The notes under the pieces were generated by a model. That model saw nothing but the letters and a program-made list of their open reading frames with translations. It made no database searches and was not told the origin of the DNA. The position numbers and the translations under genes were made by a program. Source: Minisyncoccota bacterium (lineage in GTDB: Bacteria > Patescibacteriota > Minisyncoccia > UBA6257 > JAGOQP01). Taken from it: DNA of 64,000 nt. Shown in pieces: positions 3,953 through 61,581 of this stretch (its first letter is position 1; each line of letters begins with the position of its first letter). The DNA is taken from NCBI GenBank assembly GCA_041661795.1, contig JBAZTS010000004.1, positions 6,136 to 70,135 on the forward strand, given 5' to 3'.

Positions 3953-5494
3953 TTAAATCAGATGGTTCAATAAGCTTTGGCCGGACATATCGTCCGGTTT
4001 TTTTATTTCCATTAACTCTAAAATCGTGGGAGCTACGTCGGCCAACATTCCTATGGTGATTTTTTCCTTTTCTTTTATATTAAATTGATCTTGGGGTTTT
4101 TGGAAAATTTTTCCAACTAAATATATCGGAACCGGACTTGGGTCGTGTTTGGTTTCCGGCTCACCCGTTACAGGATTAAACAATCTTTCTACGTTACCAT
4201 GGTCGCTAGTGATAATCACAATTGTATCTTTAGCTAAAGACGATTGGATAATCTTTCCTATCTGCTCGTCTATTATCTCCACCGCTTTTAATGATGCCTG
4301 ATAATTTCCCGTATGAGCTATCATGTCGGGATTAGCAAAATTAACCAATATAAAACTAAAAACTCCTTCTTCTATTGCTTGTATGGTCCTTGTAGTGATA
4401 GCAGGAGCCATCATTTGCGGGTCGTCTTCCTGGCGGGGAATCATTTTGGACGGGATTAAAATACGGTATTCGTTTTCAAAAGGTTTGTCGTCTAAACCGT
4501 TAAAAAAGAAAGTAACATGGGCGTATTTTTGGGTCTCGGCTATTCTCAATTGACTGGCTCCGTTATCCGCTAAAATTTTTCCTAAAGGATTTTTGACTAT
4601 CTGTGGAGGAAAGGCGGTGGGGATTTTATAGTCCTCTCTTATTTGTGTCATTGAGGCGACAAAAATATTTTCAAATTTGTTGGTTTGGAAATAAGCAAAA
4701 TCAGGATTAACAAAAGCCTCGGATATTTGTCTTAAGCGATCTTCTCTAAAATTAAAAAAGAATATAGAGTCATTATTTTCCACCGATCTTTTTTGGGACT
4801 CAATGATTACCGGCATAACAAATTCGTCATTTAGATTTTTGTCGTAAGTTTTTTGGATATGACTTTTTATTCCATCTTCTTTTATAATCTGAGCTTTTCC
4901 GGTTATCGCATCGTAAGTTCTGGCGGTTAAATCCCAGTGCTTGTCTCTATCCATAGCATAATATCTTCCTGAGACGCTTGCGATTTTTTCCTGGGGAAGC
5001 TTGGATATTAACGAAAAAGAAGAGTAAGGAGCGCTGTCTCTTCCGTCAGTAAAAACATGTATAAAATAACCCACCCCTTCTTTTTGGGCTATTTCCATTA
5101 AGGCGGTCAGATGTTCCATAGATGAATGGATATTGGCTTCTCCTATTAATCCCACAAAATGAATGCGAGATTTATTTTTTTTGGCGTGATTAACTGCCGC
5201 AAGCACCGTTTCGTTTTTAAAAAAACTTCTATCTCTTACCGCTAAACTTATTCTGGGAAAATGTTGGTAGATTATTTTTCCGGCCCCCATGGTCAAATGG
5301 CCAACTTCACTGTTTCCTTCTTCCCCCCAAGGAAGACCAACGGCAATGCCGGATGCTTGCAAAGCGCCTGATGGGAAATTATTTTTTATGTATTCTATGT
5401 TTTTGGGTTTGGCGACGTATATTGGGTTTGATTGATTTTCTTGTCCAATGCCCCATCCGTCCAAAACCACTAAAACAACAGGTTTTCTAGCCAT
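3953..5494 (-). CDS. gpmI: 2,3-bisphosphoglycerate-independent phosphoglycerate mutase
   Basis: Full-length iPGM similarity (MARKPVVLVVLDGWG..., metal-binding Ser/His/Asp motifs). The likely start is the internal Met at about 5494, not the ORF-track start at 5560. Confidence 0.88.
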   Translation of the reverse strand: MARKPVVLVVLDGWGIGQENQSNPIYVAKPKNIEYIKNNFPSGALQASGIAVGLPWGEEGNSEVGHLTMGAGKIIYQHFPRISLAVRDRSFFKNETVLAAVNHAKKNKSRIHFVGLIGEANIHSSMEHLTALMEIAQKEGVGYFIHVFTDGRDSAPYSSFSLISKLPQEKIASVSGRYYAMDRDKHWDLTARTYDAITGKAQIIKEDGIKSHIQKTYDKNLNDEFVMPVIIESQKRSVENNDSIFFFNFREDRLRQISEAFVNPDFAYFQTNKFENIFVASMTQIREDYKIPTAFPPQIVKNPLGKILADNGASQLRIAETQKYAHVTFFFNGLDDKPFENEYRILIPSKMIPRQEDDPQMMAPAITTRTIQAIEEGVFSFILVNFANPDMIAHTGNYQASLKAVEIIDEQIGKIIQSSLAKDTIVIITSDHGNVERLFNPVTGEPETKHDPSPVPIYLVGKIFQKPQDQFNIKEKEKITIGMLADVAPTILELMEIKKPDDMSGQSLLNHLI

Positions 5495-5641
5495 TGCATC
5501 AATGATAATACAAAACCAGTTGACTGTAAAAGAACAAAGGACTATTATAAACTTGTTCAATTTTAAATTTAATTATTTTTCAGATGAATTCTTTAACAAA
5601 TCAATTGAATATCCCAAGGAAGAATCTGAAGATTTTCTACC

Positions 5642-8555: not shown

Positions 8556-9086
8556 TTATTGAGAAAGCGCTTTAATAATTGAATTTAAATCGCTATTCAT
8601 TGTGGTTGAATCTAGATCTCCCGATTGGATAACTTTTGTTTCTTTATCAAGTATGGTCTGGTTTAAGTGGTTGAATTGATCTTTTGACACCTGGTCTAAA
8701 ACCTTTAAACTTTCCGCTGATGTTTTTTGAAAATGATCCAATTGGGATATCTGAATATTTATATTAGAATTGACGATCTCAGCTTCGGCTACCACTTTCT
8801 TTTCATTTAATCCCGGCAGAAACAAAGGGGAAAGTTCTCTAGTGGCATAATAAACCGAAACTAAAATCACCAAACTTCCAAGAACAAAAGAAATGGCTCT
8901 TGGGGCGTAGGTGAAGTAATTTAATATGGAAAAGGAACCATTGCCGATGCTAACGGCTAAATTTCCCTCCTCGTTATGAATTTGTTGACTCTGAAGAACC
9001 AATCTTTTTGAAGAAGCCGAAAAATCATTCTTTGGATGAATGTTTTTAAAACTTCCTAGTATAGATTTTAATCTTTTGGTTTCCAT
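8556..9086 (-). CDS. Putative anti-sigma factor (single-pass membrane protein)
   Basis: Single TM segment. The start overlaps the stop of the ECF sigma gene. Position equivalent to 14034..14687. Confidence 0.45.
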   Translation of the reverse strand: METKRLKSILGSFKNIHPKNDFSASSKRLVLQSQQIHNEEGNLAVSIGNGSFSILNYFTYAPRAISFVLGSLVILVSVYYATRELSPLFLPGLNEKKVVAEAEIVNSNINIQISQLDHFQKTSAESLKVLDQVSKDQFNHLNQTILDKETKVIQSGDLDSTTMNSDLNSIIKALSQ

Positions 9087-9658
9087 TGGTTGTCTTGGTT
9101 ATTTTCCTTTTTACCTATCATTTTCTTTAATTTTCTTATGGCTCTAAATTGAAGAACTCTGATGGCGCCTTGATTTTTTCCTATGATTTTAGATATTTCT
9201 TCGTAGGAAAGTTCTTCAACAAATCTTAAAATTATTATTTCTTGTTGGTCTGGAGTTAGCTTAGAAAGCGACTGATAGACCACCTCTATTTCCATTTTTT
9301 TGATGGTTTCTTCTCCTGCCTTCTCTTCAACTACTACCTCTTCCGTAACCTTTTCTATGTCAATTAGGTTCTTTTTGGTTCGGTAATGGTCTATAACCTT
9401 ATTTCTGGCTATTCTATAAAGCCAGCTGGATATAGGTAGTCCCTGATCCTTGAAAGAGTTTATATTTTGCCAAGCGCTTAAGAAAACTTGGTGGGTAAGG
9501 TCCTCAGCTTCCTCACGGTGGCCTACTTTAAGATAGATAAACCGGAAAATTCCTGGTTGATATCTGTCATATAGAAGGCCAAAAGCCGGGGCCTCACCCA
9601 TAATGGCTCTTTCAGCCAGGTCTTTCTCATTTTCTTTTTTAGAAAGCCCATCTAACAT
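9068..9658 (-). CDS. ECF-type RNA polymerase sigma factor
   Basis: Sigma-70 region 2 (FLSAWQNINSF..., 'YRIARNKVIDHYR') and region 4 HTH (LSYEEISKIIGKNQGAIRVLQFRAIRKLKK). Confidence 0.85.
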   Translation of the reverse strand: MLDGLSKKENEKDLAERAIMGEAPAFGLLYDRYQPGIFRFIYLKVGHREEAEDLTHQVFLSAWQNINSFKDQGLPISSWLYRIARNKVIDHYRTKKNLIDIEKVTEEVVVEEKAGEETIKKMEIEVVYQSLSKLTPDQQEIIILRFVEELSYEEISKIIGKNQGAIRVLQFRAIRKLKKMIGKKENNQDNQWKPKD

Positions 9659-9836
9659 ATATAACGAAAAATTAGTGATTTAGTTTCAAAAAAGCTCCTT
9701 TTTGGAGCATACGGCAATTATACACTACTTTTGGCCAACACCAAAGCAAATTTTTATTTTGTTATGTTAAATTCTTATTATATTTTGTATAATAAAACTA
9801 TGCATTCAGAATCTGACAATAAAACAAATCTTCCTT

Positions 9837-9847
9837 GGGGGGGGGGG
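9837..9847 (+). repeat. Homopolymeric G11 tract inside the 5' end of the pilin reading frame
   Basis: Read directly. With 11 Gs, the ATG at 9800 terminates at TAA 9867 and the pilin body is out of frame. With 10 Gs, ATG 9800 reads through into the FTLVELLVVIG prepilin motif. Confidence 0.85.
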
Positions 9848-9914
9848 ATTCCATGTATCCGAAAATAAATCATTTACTCTTGTAGAGTTATTAGTCGTCA
9901 TCGGAATTCTTGCT

Positions 9915-11108
9915 GTGTTAACAACCGCAGTCGTTATTATCCTCAATCCTTCTGATTATCTTGCTCAAGCCAGGGACTCTCGTAGAATGCAAGACCTCTC
10001 CCTCCTCAATAATTCCCTCCAAAACCTAGAAGCCATAGATCCTACTATATCCTTTGGAACATCTCTTACTGTCTATGTATCTATACCAGATGATGCTTCT
10101 TCTACCTGTGGAACCTTAGGATTACCTGCTCTTCCAGCTACCTATACATACAATTGTGTCTCAACAGCTAATCTCACTAAAACCAATGGTACTGGTTGGG
10201 TTCCTGTCAACTTTACTACTCAATCTATTGTTCAATTATCTGCTCTTCCCATAGATCCTACTAATACTCCTACAGATGGACTTTATTATACATATATCCC
10301 TGGAGGTTCCTATGAACTCAACACCATCTTAGAATCCAACAAATACAGATTATCAGGAGATAAAGACAGAACTTCTTCTGATGGAGGTGACTCCTTCGCT
10401 GTCTATGAAATAGGTACCAACAAGACCCTTAACCCCATCAAGGATTCTGGTCTTGTGGGATATTGGAAGTTTGATGGAGGAACATCAGGGTCTATATCTA
10501 ATAATCAGACAACTGGATTTGAAGATTTCTCAAGTAATAACAACGGTGGGACAGCTAAAAACACTAATGGCACAGGTATGTCTTGGGCTCAAGGGAAGGT
10601 AGGAGGAGCTGTTTCATTTGACGGTGCGGATGATTATGTGAATCTTGGGAGTCTTGATAATCTTTCAGGAAATAGCGAAACAGTATCTTTTTGGCAGAAT
10701 GCCTATTCGAGAAATGATTTCGGAAGCTCTGTTGATAGCTCTCTCGGAGGAAGTGAAGCTACAATCAGATTTAATATTGGTTATTATTATTCGGTATCTC
10801 CTCATTTCTCGGTGTTTATTGGCAATGGAAGCTCTGCTCAATCATTTAGTTTTTACAACACAATTCCACTAGGTACTTGGGAACACTATATTGTCGTTTT
10901 GGATGGCAGTAATTTAAAAGTGTTTTTGAATGGAACGCAACTTAGTTCAACAGAAAATGTTGCGATAACCTTGGCGCAGGGAATTTACGGAATTGCCAAG
11001 GGATCTGGCGGAGCTGGTTTTTTTAATGGTCTTATCGACGATGTTCGTATCTACGATCGCGCCCTCTCCGTATCAGAAATAAAAGCTATTTATAATGCCA
11101 CTAAGTAG
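9915..11108 (+). CDS. Type IV pilin-like protein with a C-terminal concanavalin A-like lectin (LamG) domain; the N-terminal prepilin segment (from ATG 9800) is frameshifted by the G11 tract
   Basis: Upstream in-frame sequence encodes 'KSFTLVELLVVIGILAVLTTAVV' (class III signal and N-terminal pilin helix). The C-terminus carries a LamG-like segment (GLVGYWKFDGG...GKVGGAVSFDGADDYV...IDDVRIYDRALSVSEI). The track ORF begins at GTG 9915. Confidence 0.75.
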   Translation: MLTTAVVIILNPSDYLAQARDSRRMQDLSLLNNSLQNLEAIDPTISFGTSLTVYVSIPDDASSTCGTLGLPALPATYTYNCVSTANLTKTNGTGWVPVNFTTQSIVQLSALPIDPTNTPTDGLYYTYIPGGSYELNTILESNKYRLSGDKDRTSSDGGDSFAVYEIGTNKTLNPIKDSGLVGYWKFDGGTSGSISNNQTTGFEDFSSNNNGGTAKNTNGTGMSWAQGKVGGAVSFDGADDYVNLGSLDNLSGNSETVSFWQNAYSRNDFGSSVDSSLGGSEATIRFNIGYYYSVSPHFSVFIGNGSSAQSFSFYNTIPLGTWEHYIVVLDGSNLKVFLNGTQLSSTENVAITLAQGIYGIAKGSGGAGFFNGLIDDVRIYDRALSVSEIKAIYNATK

Positions 11109-13471: not shown

Positions 13472-14041
13472 ATGATTAGAACAAGAAAAGAAAAGTTAGA
13501 AAGTTTTGAACAAACCGTCGCAAAAGCGGGAAGGTTAGACGAGGACTCTTTTGCTTTAATATACCAACAGTGCGTTTCGCCTCTTTATAGGTTCTTTTAT
13601 ATACGAGTCAAAAATAAGGCGATTTCAGAGGATCTTACCCAATTGGTTTTTTTAAAGGCCTGGGGAAACATTAAAGATTTGGATAATATAGAAAATATTA
13701 CCGCTTGGCTTTTTACCGTGGCCAGAAACACATTAATTGACCACTGGAGAAAGAAAAAAGACATAAGTGTTGGCGACCTATCTTTTTTGGAGGAAAAGGG
13801 CGGTAGCTCTGATTCTTCTGGCGAGATAGATATAATAAAATCTATGGGGGAAATTGAGTTGGTTTTAGACAAATTAAATGATGAGCAGAGGGAAGTTGTC
13901 ACTCTAAAATTTTTTGATGGGCGTTCCAACAAGGAAATAGAAAAAATCATGAGAAAATCTTCTACTTCTATAAGGTCGCTTCAATACAGAGCCATGCTTA
14001 ACTTGAGAGATATTTTAAATAAGGACAATAAAAATGAATAA
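13472..14041 (+). CDS. ECF-type RNA polymerase sigma factor (paralog of 9068..9658)
   Basis: Region 2 (FLKAWGNIKDL, 'FTVARNTLIDHWR') and region 4 (EVVTLKFFDGRSNKEIEKIMRKSSTSIRSLQYRAMLNLR). Confidence 0.85.
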   Translation: MIRTRKEKLESFEQTVAKAGRLDEDSFALIYQQCVSPLYRFFYIRVKNKAISEDLTQLVFLKAWGNIKDLDNIENITAWLFTVARNTLIDHWRKKKDISVGDLSFLEEKGGSSDSSGEIDIIKSMGEIELVLDKLNDEQREVVTLKFFDGRSNKEIEKIMRKSSTSIRSLQYRAMLNLRDILNKDNKNE

Positions 14042-27778: not shown

Positions 27779-30139
27779 ATGCCAGATTTTTCAAAAAAAG
27801 AACTTTCCGAACAAGATATTTGCTCAAAATATATCCTACCAGCTATTGTTAACGCCGGTTGGGATTTACAGAAGCAAATTCGCGAACAATACAGTTTTAC
27901 GGCTGGTCGCATTACTGTGCGCGGGAAGACTGTTTTTCGCGGAGAACAAAAACGTGTTGATTTTATTCTTTATCATCGGGGTCATCTCCCGCTCGCAATT
28001 ATTGAGGCAAAAGACAACGCTCATTCGGTTGGTGAAGGAATGCAACAGGCTTTGGGATATGCAGAAGCCCTTGATGTTCCATTTGTGTACAGCTCCAATG
28101 GAAACGCTTTTTTGGAGCATGACCGTATCACAAAAACAGACGCTGTTGAACGAGAACTTAAGCTAAGTGAATTTCCTTCGCCAGAGACGCTTTATAATCG
28201 TTATATAAAGGCCAAAAATATTATCCCCGCACAGGAGCAGATAATTATTCAAGATTATTACCATGAAATAGATGGAAAGTCACCACGCTATTTTCAGCAG
28301 GTGGCCATAAATCGCGCCACAGAAGAAATCGCCAAAGGTAAAAATCGTCTTCTGCTCGTAATGGCAACTGGTACCGGTAAAACTTACACCGCTTTCCAAA
28401 TTATCTGGCGTCTTTGGAAAGCCGGAGTAAAAAAACGCATTCTCTTTTTGGTTGATAGAAATATTTTGGCTGATCAGCCTATCATGAATGACTTTAGACA
28501 CTTTGGCGACAAGATGACGAAAATTCAACACCGTCAAGTTGATAAAGCTTACGAAGTTTATCTAGGACTTTATCAGGGTTTAACCGGTCTAGAAGAAGAA
28601 AAAAATATTTTTAAACAATTCTCTCCTGATTTTTTTGATTTGATAATCGTTGACGAATGTCACCGAGGGAGTGCTCGCGAAGATACTGCCTGGCGTGAGA
28701 TTCTGGAATATTATAAAAACGCCACTCAAATCGGTTTGACTGCCACTCCAAAAGAAACCGCCGACATTTCAACTCAAACTTATTTTGGCGAACCGGTATA
28801 CACTTACTCGCTCAGACAAGGCATTGAAGATGGTTTTCTGGCTCCTTATAAAGTCATTAGGGTTACGTTGGATAGAGATGCTGAAGGTTATCGTCCTACG
28901 GTTGGGGAGATTGATAAATATGATAATCCGATACCAGATAAAATTTTTAGTCAAAGTGATTTTGATCGCAAAATAGTACTGGAAGAACGTACCAAAGTCG
29001 TAGCCGAAAAAATCACTCAGTATCTCAAAGCTACTGATCGGATGCAAAAAGCGATTGTATTTTGTGTAGACACCGAACATGCCGATCGCATGCGTCAAGA
29101 ACTCGTAAACACAAACTCCGATCTTGTTAGTGATCATCCTAATTACATCGTTCGTATAACCGGTAACGATGAATATGGAGTAAAGGAACTTGATAGATTT
29201 ATCAATCCGGAAAGTCCTTATCCAGTCATTGCTACTACCTCAAAATTATTGACTACCGGAGTTGATACACAGACCGTTCGCCTTATTGTTATAGACCAAA
29301 ACATCAATTCAATGATTGAGTTTAAGCAAATCATTGGTCGCGGCACACGTGTGCGTGAAGATTATGGCAAGATGTTTTTTACCATTATGGATTTCCGGGG
29401 AGCTACGGAGTTATTTGCCGATCCTAAATTTGATGGTGACCCAGTTGTTATTTATCAAGCTAAAGAAAAAGGACCAATTATTGACCCCAACGAAGATGAA
29501 AAGGGAATTATTATAGAAGACAGACCAATTATTGATTATGATGTTTCAAGACCAAGAACTGGAATGGTTCATGACGAGCCTAAAAAATATTATCCCCAAG
29601 GCGTAGAAGTAAAAGTTATTAATGAGAGAGTCCAATATATGGATGAACATGGCAAACTTATCACTCAATCGCTTAAAGACTATACTAAACACAATATTTT
29701 AAAAGAATACGCTTCGCTGGATGATTTTTTAACCGCCTGGACGAAAGCCGAACAAAAAGATGCAATTTTAAACGAATTGGAGTCGCGTGGAGTATTTTTC
29801 CAAGAATTATCAGATGAAGTTGGTAAAGATTTAGATCCTTTTGATCTCGTTTGTCATGTCGCCTGGGGTAAAAAACCTCTTACGCGTCATCAGAGAGCAG
29901 AAAAAGCTCGTAAGGATGATTATTTTGCAAAATACAAAGGTAAGGCGCGTCAAGTTATAGATGCTCTTTTAATAAAATATGCCGACCAAGGCATTACTGC
30001 TATTGATGACATCGGCGATCTTCAAGTCCCGCCCCTTAACGAATTTGGAACTCCTGTCGAAATTGTAGATATTATCTTTGGTGGTCGGGAGAAATATTTA
30101 GAAGTTATTCAGGAAGTTCAGCAAGCTCTTTACTCTTAA
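27779..30139 (+). CDS. hsdR: Type I restriction enzyme R subunit
   Basis: N-terminal PD-(D/E)xK nuclease region, SF2 helicase motifs (MATGTGKT, DECHR, TATPKET), HsdR C-terminal domain. Confidence 0.9.
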   Translation: MPDFSKKELSEQDICSKYILPAIVNAGWDLQKQIREQYSFTAGRITVRGKTVFRGEQKRVDFILYHRGHLPLAIIEAKDNAHSVGEGMQQALGYAEALDVPFVYSSNGNAFLEHDRITKTDAVERELKLSEFPSPETLYNRYIKAKNIIPAQEQIIIQDYYHEIDGKSPRYFQQVAINRATEEIAKGKNRLLLVMATGTGKTYTAFQIIWRLWKAGVKKRILFLVDRNILADQPIMNDFRHFGDKMTKIQHRQVDKAYEVYLGLYQGLTGLEEEKNIFKQFSPDFFDLIIVDECHRGSAREDTAWREILEYYKNATQIGLTATPKETADISTQTYFGEPVYTYSLRQGIEDGFLAPYKVIRVTLDRDAEGYRPTVGEIDKYDNPIPDKIFSQSDFDRKIVLEERTKVVAEKITQYLKATDRMQKAIVFCVDTEHADRMRQELVNTNSDLVSDHPNYIVRITGNDEYGVKELDRFINPESPYPVIATTSKLLTTGVDTQTVRLIVIDQNINSMIEFKQIIGRGTRVREDYGKMFFTIMDFRGATELFADPKFDGDPVVIYQAKEKGPIIDPNEDEKGIIIEDRPIIDYDVSRPRTGMVHDEPKKYYPQGVEVKVINERVQYMDEHGKLITQSLKDYTKHNILKEYASLDDFLTAWTKAEQKDAILNELESRGVFFQELSDEVGKDLDPFDLVCHVAWGKKPLTRHQRAEKARKDDYFAKYKGKARQVIDALLIKYADQGITAIDDIGDLQVPPLNEFGTPVEIVDIIFGGREKYLEVIQEVQQALYS

Positions 30140-30149
30140 TTAAAATTGT

Positions 30150-31580
30150 ATGTCTGAAATCCAATCTATAATAAAAAACATCCAGAATATAATGCGCCAA
30201 GACGCAGGTGTTGATGGCGATGCCCAACGGCTCTCTCAGCTTGTTTGGATGTTGTTTTTGAAAATATTTGACGATCAGGAAAAAGAGAGGGAACTTATAA
30301 ATCCCAAGTATAAATCTCCGATTCCACAGGATCTTCGTTGGCGTAATTGGGCAAGCAATCCAGAAGGGACAACCGGCGATAAATTGCTTGATTTTGTAAA
30401 TAACACTCTTTTTAAACGTCTCAAAGATTTATCTTTTGACGAAAGCGAAGACCCGCGCGGTTTTATAGTCCGCGAAGTATTTGCCGATAGTTATAACTAT
30501 ATGAAGTCCGGAACGCTTATTCGTCAGGTTATCAATAAAATCAACGAAATTAATTTCAATAAAGCCGACGACCGCCACGCTTTTAACGATTTATACGAAC
30601 ATCTGCTAAAAGAGCTTCAGAGTGCCGGAAATGCGGGGGAATACTACACGCCTCGCCCTCTCACACGTTTCATCGTGGAAATGGTAAATCCTAAACTCGG
30701 CGAATCCGTGTTGGACCCAGCTTGTGGCACGGGGGGATTTTTAATTGATACTATTGAATATATAAGAAAAAATGAGATAAAAAATCAATCAGATGAAAGA
30801 AAATTACAAAACCAGATTCACGGAGTGGAACTTAAACCGTTACCACATTTGCTTGCTATAACCAATATGATTTTACACGGCGTGGATACTCCAAAACATC
30901 TTCGTTGTGGCGATATGCTCTCTCAACCTCTTCGTGAATACGGTCCCAAAGACAGAGTGGATGTAATCGTAGCCAATCCTCCATTTGGTGGAGCGGTAAA
31001 AGACGGAGTGGAAAAAAACTTTCCTGCCGAGTTTCGTACCAAAGAGACCGCTGATTTATTTTTAGTTTTATTTATACATCTCCTTAAACCTAACGGCCGA
31101 GCCGGAATTATTTTACCTGACGGGTCTCTTTTTGGAGAAGGCGTAAAGACTGCTATTAAGAAAAAACTACTTGAAGAATGTAATGTTCACACCATCATCC
31201 GCTTATCCCAAGGAGTTTTTAACCCATATGCCGGAGTAAATACCAATCTTATATTTTTCACCAAAGGCGAACCCACAAAAGAGATTTGGTATTATCAGCT
31301 TCCGCTTCCGGATGGAATGAAACAATACACAAAAAATCGTGGTATAACTCATGAAGAGTTTAATGTTGTCCGCAAATGGTGGGGAAGCCGTAAGTCAAAT
31401 GGAAATTCCTGGAAGGTCTCCATAAAAGAAATTCAGGAAAGAAATTATAATTTAGACTTTAAAAATCCAAACGGCAATGCAAAAACTAACCACAAGGATC
31501 CAAGGGAAGTTTTAGGGGAGATTAAGGAGAAAGAAAAAGAAATAACCAAAATACTGGGAGAAATTGATAGACAAATATAA
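30150..31580 (+). CDS. hsdM: Type I restriction-modification N6-adenine methyltransferase subunit
   Basis: HsdM N-domain; SAM motif 'DPACGTGGFL'; 'NPPFG' catalytic motif. Confidence 0.9.
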   Translation: MSEIQSIIKNIQNIMRQDAGVDGDAQRLSQLVWMLFLKIFDDQEKERELINPKYKSPIPQDLRWRNWASNPEGTTGDKLLDFVNNTLFKRLKDLSFDESEDPRGFIVREVFADSYNYMKSGTLIRQVINKINEINFNKADDRHAFNDLYEHLLKELQSAGNAGEYYTPRPLTRFIVEMVNPKLGESVLDPACGTGGFLIDTIEYIRKNEIKNQSDERKLQNQIHGVELKPLPHLLAITNMILHGVDTPKHLRCGDMLSQPLREYGPKDRVDVIVANPPFGGAVKDGVEKNFPAEFRTKETADLFLVLFIHLLKPNGRAGIILPDGSLFGEGVKTAIKKKLLEECNVHTIIRLSQGVFNPYAGVNTNLIFFTKGEPTKEIWYYQLPLPDGMKQYTKNRGITHEEFNVVRKWWGSRKSNGNSWKVSIKEIQERNYNLDFKNPNGNAKTNHKDPREVLGEIKEKEKEITKILGEIDRQI

Positions 31581-35581: not shown

Positions 35582-36055
35582 ATGACCAATTTTGAATTTT
35601 CACGAGAGTTGATAAAAGGGAAAATCGCTGAGGTTGTTTTTGAGCAGATGTTTAGAGAATCCGGGAAGTGGACAATTTTGCGTTCCGGTTATGAGTATAC
35701 ACTTCCAGAACTAGCCCAGTATCAACATTTAGCAGAGGTAAAAGCGGTTATGAAAAACATTCGCAATGCTCCGGATTTCATTTTAATATCACAAGACAAA
35801 AAGGAAGTTCATTTGGTGGAAGTTAAGTATCGTACCCATAAACAGTCAGGAGATTTAAAGAGAATATCTCAAGACGTTTTAGAATTTTGGAATCCGTGTT
35901 GGTTATTCATTGCTTCTCCAGACGGATTTTTCTTTGAGCCGTGCCACACTGTTGTTAATAATAGTGGGAAAATAAAAGCTCTCTATTCAACTTGGGTAAG
36001 TGATAATACTCAGAAAGAATATCTAAAACTCCTTAACGAATTTGAGAAAAAATAA
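35582..36055 (+). CDS. Hypothetical PD-(D/E)xK nuclease-fold protein
   Basis: 'APDFILIS...EVHLVEVKYR' fits a D...(D/E)xK restriction-endonuclease-like core. It sits immediately after hsdS. Confidence 0.4.
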   Translation: MTNFEFSRELIKGKIAEVVFEQMFRESGKWTILRSGYEYTLPELAQYQHLAEVKAVMKNIRNAPDFILISQDKKEVHLVEVKYRTHKQSGDLKRISQDVLEFWNPCWLFIASPDGFFFEPCHTVVNNSGKIKALYSTWVSDNTQKEYLKLLNEFEKK

Positions 36056-58038: not shown

Positions 58039-61000
58039 ATGCTTAGAAATTTAAAATCTTTTAACCCTTCGGAAATAGAAGAGAAGATACTCCAATTTTG
58101 GAAGGAAAAGAATATATTTGAAAAAACTTTAATTCCTAAAAAAGGAAAGAAGAAAAAACTTTTCAATTTTTGGGAAGGTCCGCCCACAGCCAATGGCAGG
58201 CCGGGCATTCACCATGTTATCGCAAGGTCCTTTAAGGATGTTGTTTTGAGATACAAAACAATGGCGGGTTTTACCGTTCCAAGACGTGGTGGATGGGATA
58301 CTCACGGGCTTCCGGTTGAACTTCAAACAGAAAAGCAACTTGGGCTTGCCTCTAAAAAAGATATAGAAAAATATGGGGTAGCCCAGTTTAACCAAAAATG
58401 TAAAGAATCGGTCTGGATATACAAAAGTGAATGGGAAAAATTCACTGAGCGCATAGCTTATTGGCTTGATTTGAAAAACGCTTATGTAACATACAAGAAT
58501 AGATACATAGAAACACTCTGGTGGATAATTTCGCAGTTTTGGAAAAAGGGTTTGATGTATCAGGGATACAAAATTGTTAACTGGTGTACCAGATGCGGGA
58601 CATCTCTTTCTTCCCATGAAGTTGCTCAGGGGTATAAAGAAGTTACTGAAAATTCGGTTTATATAAAATTTAAACTAAATAAAGGACAGAAAATTAAAAA
58701 TATCGCGACCGATGATAAAACATTTGTTCTTTCTTGGACGACTACACCATGGACTTTACCGGGCAATGTAGCTTTGGCTGTTGGGGAAAAGATAAATTAT
58801 TCTCTTGTGGAAGATTCTCAAACAAAGGAAAAATATATAATCGCTTCTGAACTTAAAAATTCTGTTTTGAAAGGAGAAAATTTAAAAGATTTGGTAAATT
58901 TTACCGGAAAAGATTTAATGGGACTTTCTTATAAACCTCTTTTTGACATTGCTACTTTAAAATCCAATACTTCCTATAAAATTTATCCTGCTGATTTTGT
59001 AACGACCACCGACGGAACTGGAGTGGTTCATACCGCCGTGGTTTACGGAGAAGACGATTATAATTTAGGTAAAAAAATAGGTCTTCCAGAAGTTCATACG
59101 GTTGATGAAAACGGAAAATTTGTTTCTCAGGTAAAAGATCTTTCTGGGCTCTACGTTAAATCAAAAGAAGCGGAAGAGAAAATATTTGAACATCTAAAAA
59201 ACAATGGAAATTTTGTTTCCATTCTTCCGTATACTCATGAGTACCCCTTCTGTTGGAGGTGCGATTCACCTCTGCTTTACTATGCCAGAAGCGCCTGGTT
59301 TGTGGCGGTTAATAAAGTCAAAAAACAACTTATTGAAAACAATCAGAAAATAAATTGGGTGCCTTCCCATATCAAAGATGGCCGTTTTGGGGAGTGGCTC
59401 AAAGAAGTCAAAGATTGGAATTTTTCCCGAGAAAGATATTGGGGAACTCCTCTTCCTATATGGAAATGCGACAAGTGCGATAACCACAGAATAATTGAGA
59501 ATTTTAACCAACTCACGGAACTTCTGCCAAAAAGCTCCAATAGCTATATATTAATGAGGCATGGACAGTCCCAGGGCAATGTAAAAGGAATTTCCAACGG
59601 TAATCCAAAGGATAGAAATAAATTTAGTTTGACTCTTAAGGGCAACGTTGAAGCTCAAAAAAGCGCTCAAGCCATAAAAAAGAATGGCGGAGTGGATATA
59701 ATTATTTCTTCTGATTTTCAGAGAACGGCTCAAACAGCCAAAGTTGTTGCTGAAGTTTTGGGAGTAAAAAAAGTTATCTTTGATAAGCGCTTGAGAGAAA
59801 TAAATGTAGGCGTTTTTGATAATTCTCCTATAAATAATTATCACCTTTTCTTTTCTTCTTACGAAGAAAAATTTTTGAAAAATCCGCCCAAAGGGGAAAG
59901 TTTAAGAGATGTAGCCGCAAGAGTGTATTCTCTGATAAAAGAAATTGAAAAAAAATATAAAAATAAAAAGATTTTAATTGTCAGTCATGAATATACATTA
60001 TGGATGGCTTCGGGAGTTATCAATGGTTATGATCAGGACGAAATGATAAGAGAAAAAGAAAAAAGAGGAGATGACTATTTAGGAACGGCTCAATGGGAAA
60101 AAATTAATTTCAAAAATGTTCCAAGAGACAAGGAAGGTTTTTGTGATTATCACAAGCCACACATAGACGCGGTTTCTTTTCCTTGCGATAAATGCAAAGG
60201 GAAAATGACAAGAGTTAAAGAAGTAGCCGATGTTTGGTTTGATGCCGGGTCAATGCCGTTTGCTCAAGACCATTTTCCGTTTAACAAAAACATTACTTTT
60301 CCGGCTGACTATATTTCCGAAGCCGTAGATCAGACCAGGGGGTGGTTTTATACTCTTTTGGCTGTATCAACTTTATTAGGGTTAAAGGGTTGTTATAAAA
60401 ATGTTATTTGCTTGGGACACATTAGGGATAAAAACGGTCAGAAAATGTCTAAGTCGCGAGGTAATGTTATTGACCCTTGGTTGATGATAAACAAATACGG
60501 AGCCGATGCATTGAGGTGGTATCTTTTTAACGTTAATGCTCCCGGAGAACCAAAAAACTTTGACGAGGAAGAATTGGCCAAAACTTTAAGAAAAACAATT
60601 TTAGTTATATATAACTCTTTTGTATTTTTAGAAACTTACGGAAAAAAAGGAGTGGATATCGGTCTCGCTTTAAAGTCCCCAAATGTCTTGGATAAATGGA
60701 TAGTAGAAAGAGTTTTTCAACTTTCCGATTCTGTAAGAAAGAATATGGATGCTTACGACATTATTAAATCTGGACAAAACATAGAACAGTTTATAGATGA
60801 TCTTTCCCGCTGGTATATAAGGAGGTCCAGAAGACGACTTCAGAAGCCAGAAGAAAAGTTATCAAATAAAAATAATGATTATCAAAATGCTTCAGCTACT
60901 CTGGCCTACGCTCTTTTATCTCTTTCCAAAATCATGGCTCCCTTTGTTCCGTTCTTTTCCGAAGCACTTTATCAATCGTTAAAGAAAGAGACCAAGTTTG

Positions 61001-61581
61001 ATTCAAAAGAATCAGTTCATCTGGAAGAATGGCCTAATTTAGGGGAAAGAGGAAAGGGGAAAGGGGAAAGCAAAAATCTGACTGAAGAGATGGAAGAGAT
61101 AAGAAAAATAGCATCACTGGTTTTGGCAAAAAGGTCAGAGCTGGGAATAAAAGTAAGACAGCCACTAGCTTTGCTTAGGGTAAAGGGTGCATGGTTTAGG
61201 GGTAAGGGAGATGAGGGGTTGTTGGAGATACTTAAAGATGAGGTGAATGTAAAAGAGGTTATTGTTGATAAAAAGTTAAAGAATGAATTTGAATTGGATA
61301 CAAATATTACTTCGGAACTTAAAAACGAAGGTATGATAAGAGAACTCACAAGAATAATCCAGGACTTAAGACAAAAATCTGGTTGTGTCCCTAAAAATAA
61401 GATATTTATTTGGATAGAAAGCGTGCCCGAGATAGAAAACTTTGTGAAAATTAATACAAAAGTCATCTCTCTGGAAGTTGGGGCTAAAAAAATTGAATTT
61501 GGCAAAAAAGACAAATTTGACGCCGAGGAGGAAACTAAAATTGACGGCCAAAAGATTTGGGTAGGAATTAAAAAAGCTTAG
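58039..61581 (+). CDS. ileS: Isoleucyl-tRNA synthetase with an inserted histidine-phosphatase (PGAM-like) domain
   Basis: HIGH 'PGIHHV' and 'KMSKS' motifs, the IleRS-type N-terminus (PPTANG...GWDTHGLPVE) and a Zn-binding C..C pair. About 230 aa between 'WKCDKCDNHR' and 'DYHKPHID' carry 'LMRHGQSQGN' (RHG motif) and 'LIVSHEYTL' of the histidine-phosphatase superfamily. Confidence 0.8.
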   Translation: MLRNLKSFNPSEIEEKILQFWKEKNIFEKTLIPKKGKKKKLFNFWEGPPTANGRPGIHHVIARSFKDVVLRYKTMAGFTVPRRGGWDTHGLPVELQTEKQLGLASKKDIEKYGVAQFNQKCKESVWIYKSEWEKFTERIAYWLDLKNAYVTYKNRYIETLWWIISQFWKKGLMYQGYKIVNWCTRCGTSLSSHEVAQGYKEVTENSVYIKFKLNKGQKIKNIATDDKTFVLSWTTTPWTLPGNVALAVGEKINYSLVEDSQTKEKYIIASELKNSVLKGENLKDLVNFTGKDLMGLSYKPLFDIATLKSNTSYKIYPADFVTTTDGTGVVHTAVVYGEDDYNLGKKIGLPEVHTVDENGKFVSQVKDLSGLYVKSKEAEEKIFEHLKNNGNFVSILPYTHEYPFCWRCDSPLLYYARSAWFVAVNKVKKQLIENNQKINWVPSHIKDGRFGEWLKEVKDWNFSRERYWGTPLPIWKCDKCDNHRIIENFNQLTELLPKSSNSYILMRHGQSQGNVKGISNGNPKDRNKFSLTLKGNVEAQKSAQAIKKNGGVDIIISSDFQRTAQTAKVVAEVLGVKKVIFDKRLREINVGVFDNSPINNYHLFFSSYEEKFLKNPPKGESLRDVAARVYSLIKEIEKKYKNKKILIVSHEYTLWMASGVINGYDQDEMIREKEKRGDDYLGTAQWEKINFKNVPRDKEGFCDYHKPHIDAVSFPCDKCKGKMTRVKEVADVWFDAGSMPFAQDHFPFNKNITFPADYISEAVDQTRGWFYTLLAVSTLLGLKGCYKNVICLGHIRDKNGQKMSKSRGNVIDPWLMINKYGADALRWYLFNVNAPGEPKNFDEEELAKTLRKTILVIYNSFVFLETYGKKGVDIGLALKSPNVLDKWIVERVFQLSDSVRKNMDAYDIIKSGQNIEQFIDDLSRWYIRRSRRRLQKPEEKLSNKNNDYQNASATLAYALLSLSKIMAPFVPFFSEALYQSLKKETKFDSKESVHLEEWPNLGERGKGKGESKNLTEEMEEIRKIASLVLAKRSELGIKVRQPLALLRVKGAWFRGKGDEGLLEILKDEVNVKEVIVDKKLKNEFELDTNITSELKNEGMIRELTRIIQDLRQKSGCVPKNKIFIWIESVPEIENFVKINTKVISLEVGAKKIEFGKKDKFDAEEETKIDGQKIWVGIKKA

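Follow-up and report, generated by a model that had tools for sequence, protein, structure and literature searches.

A poly-G tract differing in length between near-identical assemblies in the leader of a LamG-domain type IV pilin gene: a probable contingency locus in an uncultivated Paceibacterota

Host-adapted pathogens provide the best-known cases of repeat-driven phase variation. In Haemophilus influenzae, lic1, a gene for lipopolysaccharide phosphorylcholine, carries a tetranucleotide (CAAT) repeat, and starts in more than one frame give strong, weak or no translation. In Neisseria, pilC carries a poly-G tract in the region encoding its signal peptide (PMC5354566, PMC13017665). Here we describe a locus that probably switches by a mechanism of the same class, located in a 64,000-nucleotide (nt) stretch of DNA from a Minisyncoccota bacterium (assembly GCA_041661795.1, contig JBAZTS010000004.1, positions 6,136 to 70,135), hereafter the window. 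The locus is a run of eleven Gs (G11) at 9837-9847 on the + strand, uninterrupted on inspection of the sequence, within the leader-coding region of a type IV pilin gene whose product ends in a lectin-like LamG domain. An earlier note on this DNA had read the run as a candidate phase-variation switch; that reading is supported by a tract-length difference between near-identical assemblies and by (GA)n repeats in homologous genes, assembled both ON and OFF.

As in pilC1 and pilC2 of Neisseria gonorrhoeae and N. meningitidis, the closest case described so far, a G tract lies in the cleaved N-terminal region of a protein related to type IV pilus adhesion, where frameshifts would leave the mature protein unchanged. 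Whereas the window protein is a pilin with a class III leader, PilC is a tip protein of the PilY1 type and has a Sec signal peptide, and the two share no homology; unlike the mucosal pathogen Neisseria, the organism here is an uncultivated, ultra-small, groundwater-type Paceibacterota; and unlike pilC, the window gene has starts in several frames and may give two ON phases. With lic1 it has in common a repeat near the 5′ end and alternative starts in different frames, although the repeat in the pilin leader is a homopolymer or, in homologues, a dinucleotide rather than a tetranucleotide. In the Saccharibacteria TM7x, efficient binding to the host requires PilX2, and PilX1 is similar to L-type (ConA-like) lectins (PMC11623550); the window pilin appears to follow the plan of both, that of a Patescibacteria pilin with a lollipop N-terminal part and a large C-terminal lectin-like domain. 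The terms 'phase vari', 'frameshift' and 'homopolymer' are absent from that TM7x pilin paper and from a 2026 preprint on a pilus from the candidate phyla radiation (CPR), and our full-text literature searches returned no paper joining phase variation with Patescibacteria or with DUF1559, a prepilin domain discussed below. The mechanism class is classical, while the lineage, the environmental setting and the recurring two-start leader-repeat design are, as far as could be checked, new.

The reading frames around the tract explain why its length matters. ATG 9800 (9800-9802, +) opens MHSESDNKTNLPWGGG, which is followed by the eleven Gs; at G11 the product is MHSESDNKTNLPWGGGIPCIRK, 22 codons, terminated by TAA 9866-9868. 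The earlier note had stated that this frame crosses the tract into a stop, and had placed the pilin N-terminus and the lectin-like C-terminal domain in the +1 frame relative to ATG 9800; the first statement is borne out by these coordinates, the second by translation and Pfam. From 9849 the pilin frame reads FHVSENKS followed by FTLVELLVVIGILAVL and remains open for 419 codons, up to the stop at 11106-11108. On translation, the distal part of the leader (FHVSENKS, with Ser at -1) occupies 9849-9872 (+); the region encoding the mature pilin and its stop (FTLVELL..., with Glu at +5) is placed at 9873-11108 (+) by Pfam, AlphaFold2 and Foldseek. The nearest preceding stop in the pilin frame is TAA 9819, and at G11 no ATG, GTG or TTG lies in that frame between TAA 9819 and GTG 9915, a codon inside the N-terminal hydrophobic helix of the pilin. 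An in-frame start just upstream of FTLVE, raised by the note as an alternative, is not present at G11, where only the rare ATC 9828 is in frame.

The effect of tract length was simulated from G6 to G15. Deletion of one G joins ATG 9800 to a full pilin product of 435 amino acids (aa), just as the note had anticipated. ATG 9800 is in the pilin frame at G7, G10 and G13 (at G10 the prepilin has a 24-residue leader). A TTG start candidate at 9835-9837 (+), which shares the tract's first G and had been overlooked before, is in frame at G6, G9, G12 and G15 and gives a 423-aa prepilin with the leader MGGGFHVSENKS. ATC at 9828-9830 (+) is in frame at G8, G11 and G14, and at G11 it is the sole candidate in the pilin frame under translation table 11. 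Every frame has a candidate start, and the gain or loss of one nt decides whether the product is intact or truncated. In the bacteria that have been studied, ATC initiates very weakly; because nothing else is in frame at G11, we take that state as OFF or very low. Existing annotations reflect the same choice of starts, with NCBI beginning the G11 pilin at ATC 9828 (P0121, MFLGGGG), and both JGI and NCBI beginning the pilin of the G9 contig at TTG (P0001, P0123).

A TATAAT box resembling a -10 element is present in the sequence at 9788-9793 (+), 6 nt before ATG 9800, a geometry that hints at a leaderless-type transcript with its 5′ end at or beside this ATG. Perfect TATAAT boxes 6-8 nt before the ATG are also found at the genes at 35582, 39410 and 40595, and we propose a leaderless start because of the -10 box and this likeness to other window genes. 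By a generous test, a Shine-Dalgarno motif is present in 14 of 47 window genes, about 70% being without one. The placement of the TATAAT boxes and the scarcity of Shine-Dalgarno motifs suggest, as a side observation, that leaderless or Shine-Dalgarno-independent initiation is frequent in this genome. ATG 9853 was considered as the true start and rejected, since it is out of the pilin frame at any tract length. An expansion of A4 to A5 at 9862-9865 would yield the leader MYPKNKS, followed by FTL, from ATG 9853; all four assemblies have A4.

Those assemblies are the window and three others of the same population, namely a metagenome-assembled genome (MAG) at NCBI (GCA_041664185.1, L001), a MEGAHIT contig at ENA (ERZ27249449, L002) and a Logan contig (SRR18595301, L009). 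The tract is G9 in GCA_041664185.1 and G11 in the window, L002 and L009. Over 9.27 kb, L001 differs from the window by one single-nucleotide polymorphism (window 6062) and the 2-nt tract indel, the tract being one of just two variable sites between the G9 and G11 assemblies. L002, L009 and a further Logan contig, L011, are 100% identical to the window, and G11 was recovered by three pipelines (JGI, MEGAHIT k141 and Logan). Tract length is polymorphic among near-identical genomes, with two alleles in at most four assemblies, and all 419 pilin codons are open and identical across them. The comparison with other assemblies of the lineage that the earlier note had proposed therefore reveals differing lengths, G9 versus G11, and the intact G10 gene that it had offered as an alternative, obscured by an assembly error, is absent from the three other assemblies, which show G11 or G9.

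The same difference is visible at the protein level. A cluster at 90% identity holds five members from three contigs, with lengths of 397, 423 and 426 aa. The 397-aa form starts at GTG 9915, the 426-aa form at ATC 9828 on a G11 contig, and the 423-aa form (LGGGF/MGGGF...) at the TTG overlapping the first G, on a contig whose tract is shorter; the three lengths come from differing gene calls in the region of the tract. Such switches are masked in MAG annotations in this way, one gene being annotated at three lengths. Exact-flank scans (13-/14-nt flanks, tract of 4-24 nt) of metagenome and genome contig collections returned no further alleles; those collections are without this population. As a separate observation, Logan contigs L009 and L011 end inside the pilin gene, at window 9968 and 10460, one of the breaks falling near a GLVGYWKFDGG junction that is conserved in paralogous LamG pilins; the breaks suggest repeats common to other pilin genes of the same community.

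Base composition makes the tract unusual, but not astronomically so. The window has a GC content of 37.6%, G11 is its sole G or C run longer than 7, and the second-longest such run is 7. With bases taken as independent, 0.0015 runs of 11 or more are expected, and a first-order Markov model gives about 0.02; among dinucleotide shuffles, 5 of 100 had three G9/C9 matches. Composition alone is not decisive, and the argument is carried by the position of the tract and its polymorphism. At eleven Gs the tract exceeds the length of about 8 nt or more at which slippage is expected for G/C runs. The earlier note had proposed a check for further poly-G/C tracts of 9 or more in surface-protein genes; in the window, no second tract of 8 or more is found in 64 kb.

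The product of the gene has the features of a pilin with a binding domain. Its Pfam matches are N_methyl (PF07963, E 1.2e-05) and Laminin_G_3 (PF13385, E 1.4e-24), the latter over all 151 profile positions. The AlphaFold2 model (mean predicted local distance difference test score 80.4) combines a long helix (residues 11-63) with a beta-sheet head and, C-terminally, a jelly roll, residues 235-402 being all-beta; the LamG/ConA-like jelly roll is encoded at about 10620-11084. The best Foldseek match in the PDB is 5hon_A, domain 4 of AbnA (E 1.3e-14), among carbohydrate-binding jelly rolls; further matches are clostridial neurotoxin binding (Hc) domains and trans-sialidase structures. Judging from these models, the pilin probably equips the surface or tip of the pilus with a domain that binds glycans. 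The class III prepilin motif is present, with Phe at +1, Glu at +5 and a hydrophobic helix thereafter, and its F, T, L and E are invariant in 47 aligned homologues. The canonical Gly at -1 is replaced by Ser (NKS before FTL, 9870-9872); since Ser occupies this position in at least 90% of the 47 aligned LamG pilins, we regard it as a family trait and no defect. The leader would be cleaved by a prepilin peptidase. The tract encodes Gly codons in all frames and lies within the leader that would be lost on maturation, so that the number of Gly codons should have no effect on the mature pilin. Neither a prepilin peptidase nor an assembly ATPase was seen among the window open reading frames (ORFs) scanned.

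We then turn to homologues of the gene. The LamG-pilin family comprised 871 matches, annotated as LamG pilins of Paceibacterota/Patescibacteria, with leaders ranging from 5 to more than 80 residues. In species-representative genomes, a protein-based scan met with no orthologue exceeding 41% identity over the full length; nor did it find a pilin there with a G/C tract at its 5′ end. The closest homologues, P0002 and P0003 (63-64% identity), lie in another neighbourhood (PfkB-pilin-MreB). Their leaders are unalignable with that of the window pilin, homology beginning at the (N/K)SFTL codons, and for this reason the ancestral start is not inferable.

Among the 120 closest LamG-pilin homologues, four (P0014, P0015, P0056 and P0072) carry (GA)7-9.5 repeats in the leader-coding region, a rough frequency, as the repeat loci were chosen because their proteins looked odd. 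In L091, which encodes the truncated P0014 (region 1325-1425), (AG)9 comes after an ATG, and no stop interrupts the pilin frame across the repeat; the gene is assembled OFF, and (AG)8 or (AG)11 would restore a 442-aa prepilin. The other three genes, which were singled out by RERERE-type strings in their leaders, have their repeats assembled in frame: (GA)9.5 in L092/L093 (L092 994-1080), (GA)8.5 in L094 (643-695) and (GA)7.5 in L095 (382-432). L094 and L095 have the same repeat flanks and differ in repeat number and in the ATG that is in frame. In L092/L093, L094 and L095, two ATGs lie upstream of the repeat, 7 or 13 nt apart and in different frames; two of the three repeat phases would therefore be ON, with differing N-termini of the leader. 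This layout around (GA)n mirrors that of ATG 9800 and TTG 9835 around the G tract, and its recurrence with another repeat unit speaks for switchability having been selected rather than for an artefact of sequencing.

Two further features of these homologues are recorded here as observations in their own right. In L091, a perfect 12-nt inverted repeat (TCCCCCACATAA / TTATGTGGGGGA, with an 8-nt loop) covers a proximal ATG beside a G5 run. Eight proteins (P0013, P0030, P0040, P0043, P0054, P0061, P0062 and P0112) contain, within a single ORF, 2-3 tandem copies of the leader and the beginning of the SFTL(I/V)ELL segment; they have the look of duplicated 5′ cassettes, for which recombination between the 5′ ends of pilin genes might be responsible.

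Repeats in prepilin leaders are not confined to LamG pilins. Metagenome contigs were scanned for G8 or longer followed within 8-38 nt by FTL(I/V)EL(L) codons, which yielded at least 119 loci (L096-L214) with G8-G25 upstream of FTLxELL, mostly of the DUF1559 prepilin type, where chance would give a few matches by rough estimate. Most of the matches listed encode FTLVELLVVIAIIG(V/I/M)LIALLLPA(V/I)QAAREA... proteins of about 310-420 aa, and DUF1559 (PF07596, E about 1e-36) was found in both scan proteins tested. Among the 123 matched genes listed, an upstream ATG shares the frame in 65 and does not in 35, and a further 23 lie at contig edges; most of the out-of-frame genes listed would be restored by 1-2 nt. 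In many listed loci an ATG is made with the tract's first G (AAAAT-Gn), and there are ATGs in other frames as well. L097 gives two examples (4023-4072 and 5520-5577), and the low-GC loci L126 and L153 share the poly-G leader design. Sample sets with such DUF1559 loci include Ga0099364, JGI24702J35022, Ga0123353 and Ga0082212, probably termite-gut projects. No two near-identical DUF1559 loci that differed in tract length alone turned up in a search at flank identities of 90% and 97%. The (GA)n LamG pilins and the poly-G DUF1559 genes resemble the window gene in their leader-coding repeat, often with two starts in different frames; they differ from it in that the homologues' repeat is a dinucleotide and in that the C-terminal domain of the DUF1559 genes is PF07596. 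We put forward tentatively, while holding the contrary to be somewhat easier to believe, that leader repeat tracts, usually placed after starts in two frames, form an expression switch of prepilins that is widespread in uncultivated bacteria and has so far escaped description: poly-G here, (GA)n in LamG pilins from other Patescibacteria, and G8-G25 in over 100 DUF1559 paralogues of metagenomes. The window gene would be one instance.

For the window gene itself, we consider it likely that the G tract is a simple-sequence-repeat contingency locus for the LamG pilin. Slipped-strand mispairing during replication would alter tract length reversibly, and the length would set which start, if any, is in frame with the pilin. 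At G10 or G13, ATG 9800 would be fused to the pilin as a leaderless-type start, probably the strongest ON state; at G9 or G12, TTG 9835 would be in frame and give a second, probably weaker ON state; and at G11, as in the window, ATC 9828 alone would be in frame and the gene would be OFF or nearly so. The switch is probably not plainly G10 = ON: since G9 and G12 place TTG in frame, two ON phases or graded levels may exist. Switching would vary adhesion, host-binding specificity or phage exposure among the cells of one population.

Several observations weigh against this proposal. A consensus promoter scan called no promoter at 9760-9793, where the -35 region is poor, and the leaders predicted from ATG 9800 or TTG 9835 are not basic, whereas those of most homologues are. 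A single G/C tract of 8 nt or more in 64 kb gives no hint of a genome-wide set of such loci. G10, the predicted strongest ON allele, occurs in no assembly nor in a 15-billion-protein collection, where the cluster has its five members. Furthermore, the three G11 assemblies may share samples, which would leave perhaps only two independent observations, and the tract lengths come from assembly consensus and not from reads.

The alternative that best survives, unlikely as we find it, is a fixed frameshift without adaptive switching, the gene being a young pseudogene or else expressed constitutively at a low level through ATC 9828, transcriptional slippage or +1 ribosomal slippage. It would account for G11 being the commonest assembled state and for an ATC that is in frame at G11 and accepted by NCBI annotation, and polymerases and ribosomes can indeed slip on long homopolymers. 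It accords poorly with the lack of a second lesion in 419 codons and with a tract length that differs between assemblies, and the starts in two further frames, together with the two-start (GA)n homologues, are hard to explain without selection for switching. No stimulatory signal follows the tract, the ATG-frame stop coming 6 codons on.

It is quite improbable that the difference in tract length is a homopolymer error of sequencing or assembly, the true tract being fixed at G10 or G9 and the gene ordinarily intact. Long G runs are error-prone in Illumina sequencing and stutter in the polymerase chain reaction affects runs of 9 or more; G9 and G11 bracket G10, and the samples behind the three G11 contigs may overlap. 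Nevertheless, JGI, MEGAHIT k141 and Logan would all have to err to exactly G11 while a fourth assembly erred by two in the other direction, and a 2-nt difference in consensus exceeds the usual stutter of ±1. Moreover, the dinucleotide repeats of the homologues, which are not error-prone in this way, stand at the same position, ON and OFF. A poly-G artefact of two-colour sequencing was considered and rejected, the tract being internal, flanked by continuous coding-type sequence and reproduced by three assemblers.

We give very little credence to an action of the tract in transcription or translation initiation, whether as spacer or as G-rich ribosome-binding element of ATG 9853, which follows after 5 nt. 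Although GGGGG, 5 nt and ATG 9853 resemble a Shine-Dalgarno arrangement and G8 lies just upstream of an ATG in two CPR-like pilin loci of the metagenome scan (L173 and L176), ATG 9853 is always out of the pilin frame, its product MYPKINHLLL ends after 10 codons in all assemblies, and Shine-Dalgarno motifs are rare in this genome.

Among the neighbouring genes, two factors of the extracytoplasmic function (ECF) sigma-70 type flank the pilin region, at 9068-9658 (-) and 13472-14041 (+). The former and the pilin gene are divergent, with a 141-nt spacer between them that has a terminator-like minus-strand hairpin at 9694-9708; the former is followed by 176-aa and 306-aa proteins without a Pfam match. 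Further away, type I restriction-modification genes hsdR and hsdM lie at 27779-31580 (+), and 58039-61581 (+) encodes an 1180-aa class I aminoacyl-tRNA synthetase (tRNA-synt_1 and Anticodon_1) with a His_Phos_1 domain (E 4e-31) inserted at residues 504-670.

The lifestyle ascribed to Patescibacteria (CPR) is one of attachment to other microbes. In the one well-studied case among them, the host is bound by means of type IV pili with lectin-like pilins (PMC11623550). The recurrence of the design across repeat units and prepilin families points to a general rule that can be surveyed computationally, and counts of tract length in existing metagenomic reads would show the ON/OFF state of natural populations. 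If the proposed switch is real, these tiny-genome organisms may hedge their bets on attachment, host range and phage exposure; and if the wider reading holds as well, each cell would show a random selection from a large repertoire of binding domains borne on pili.

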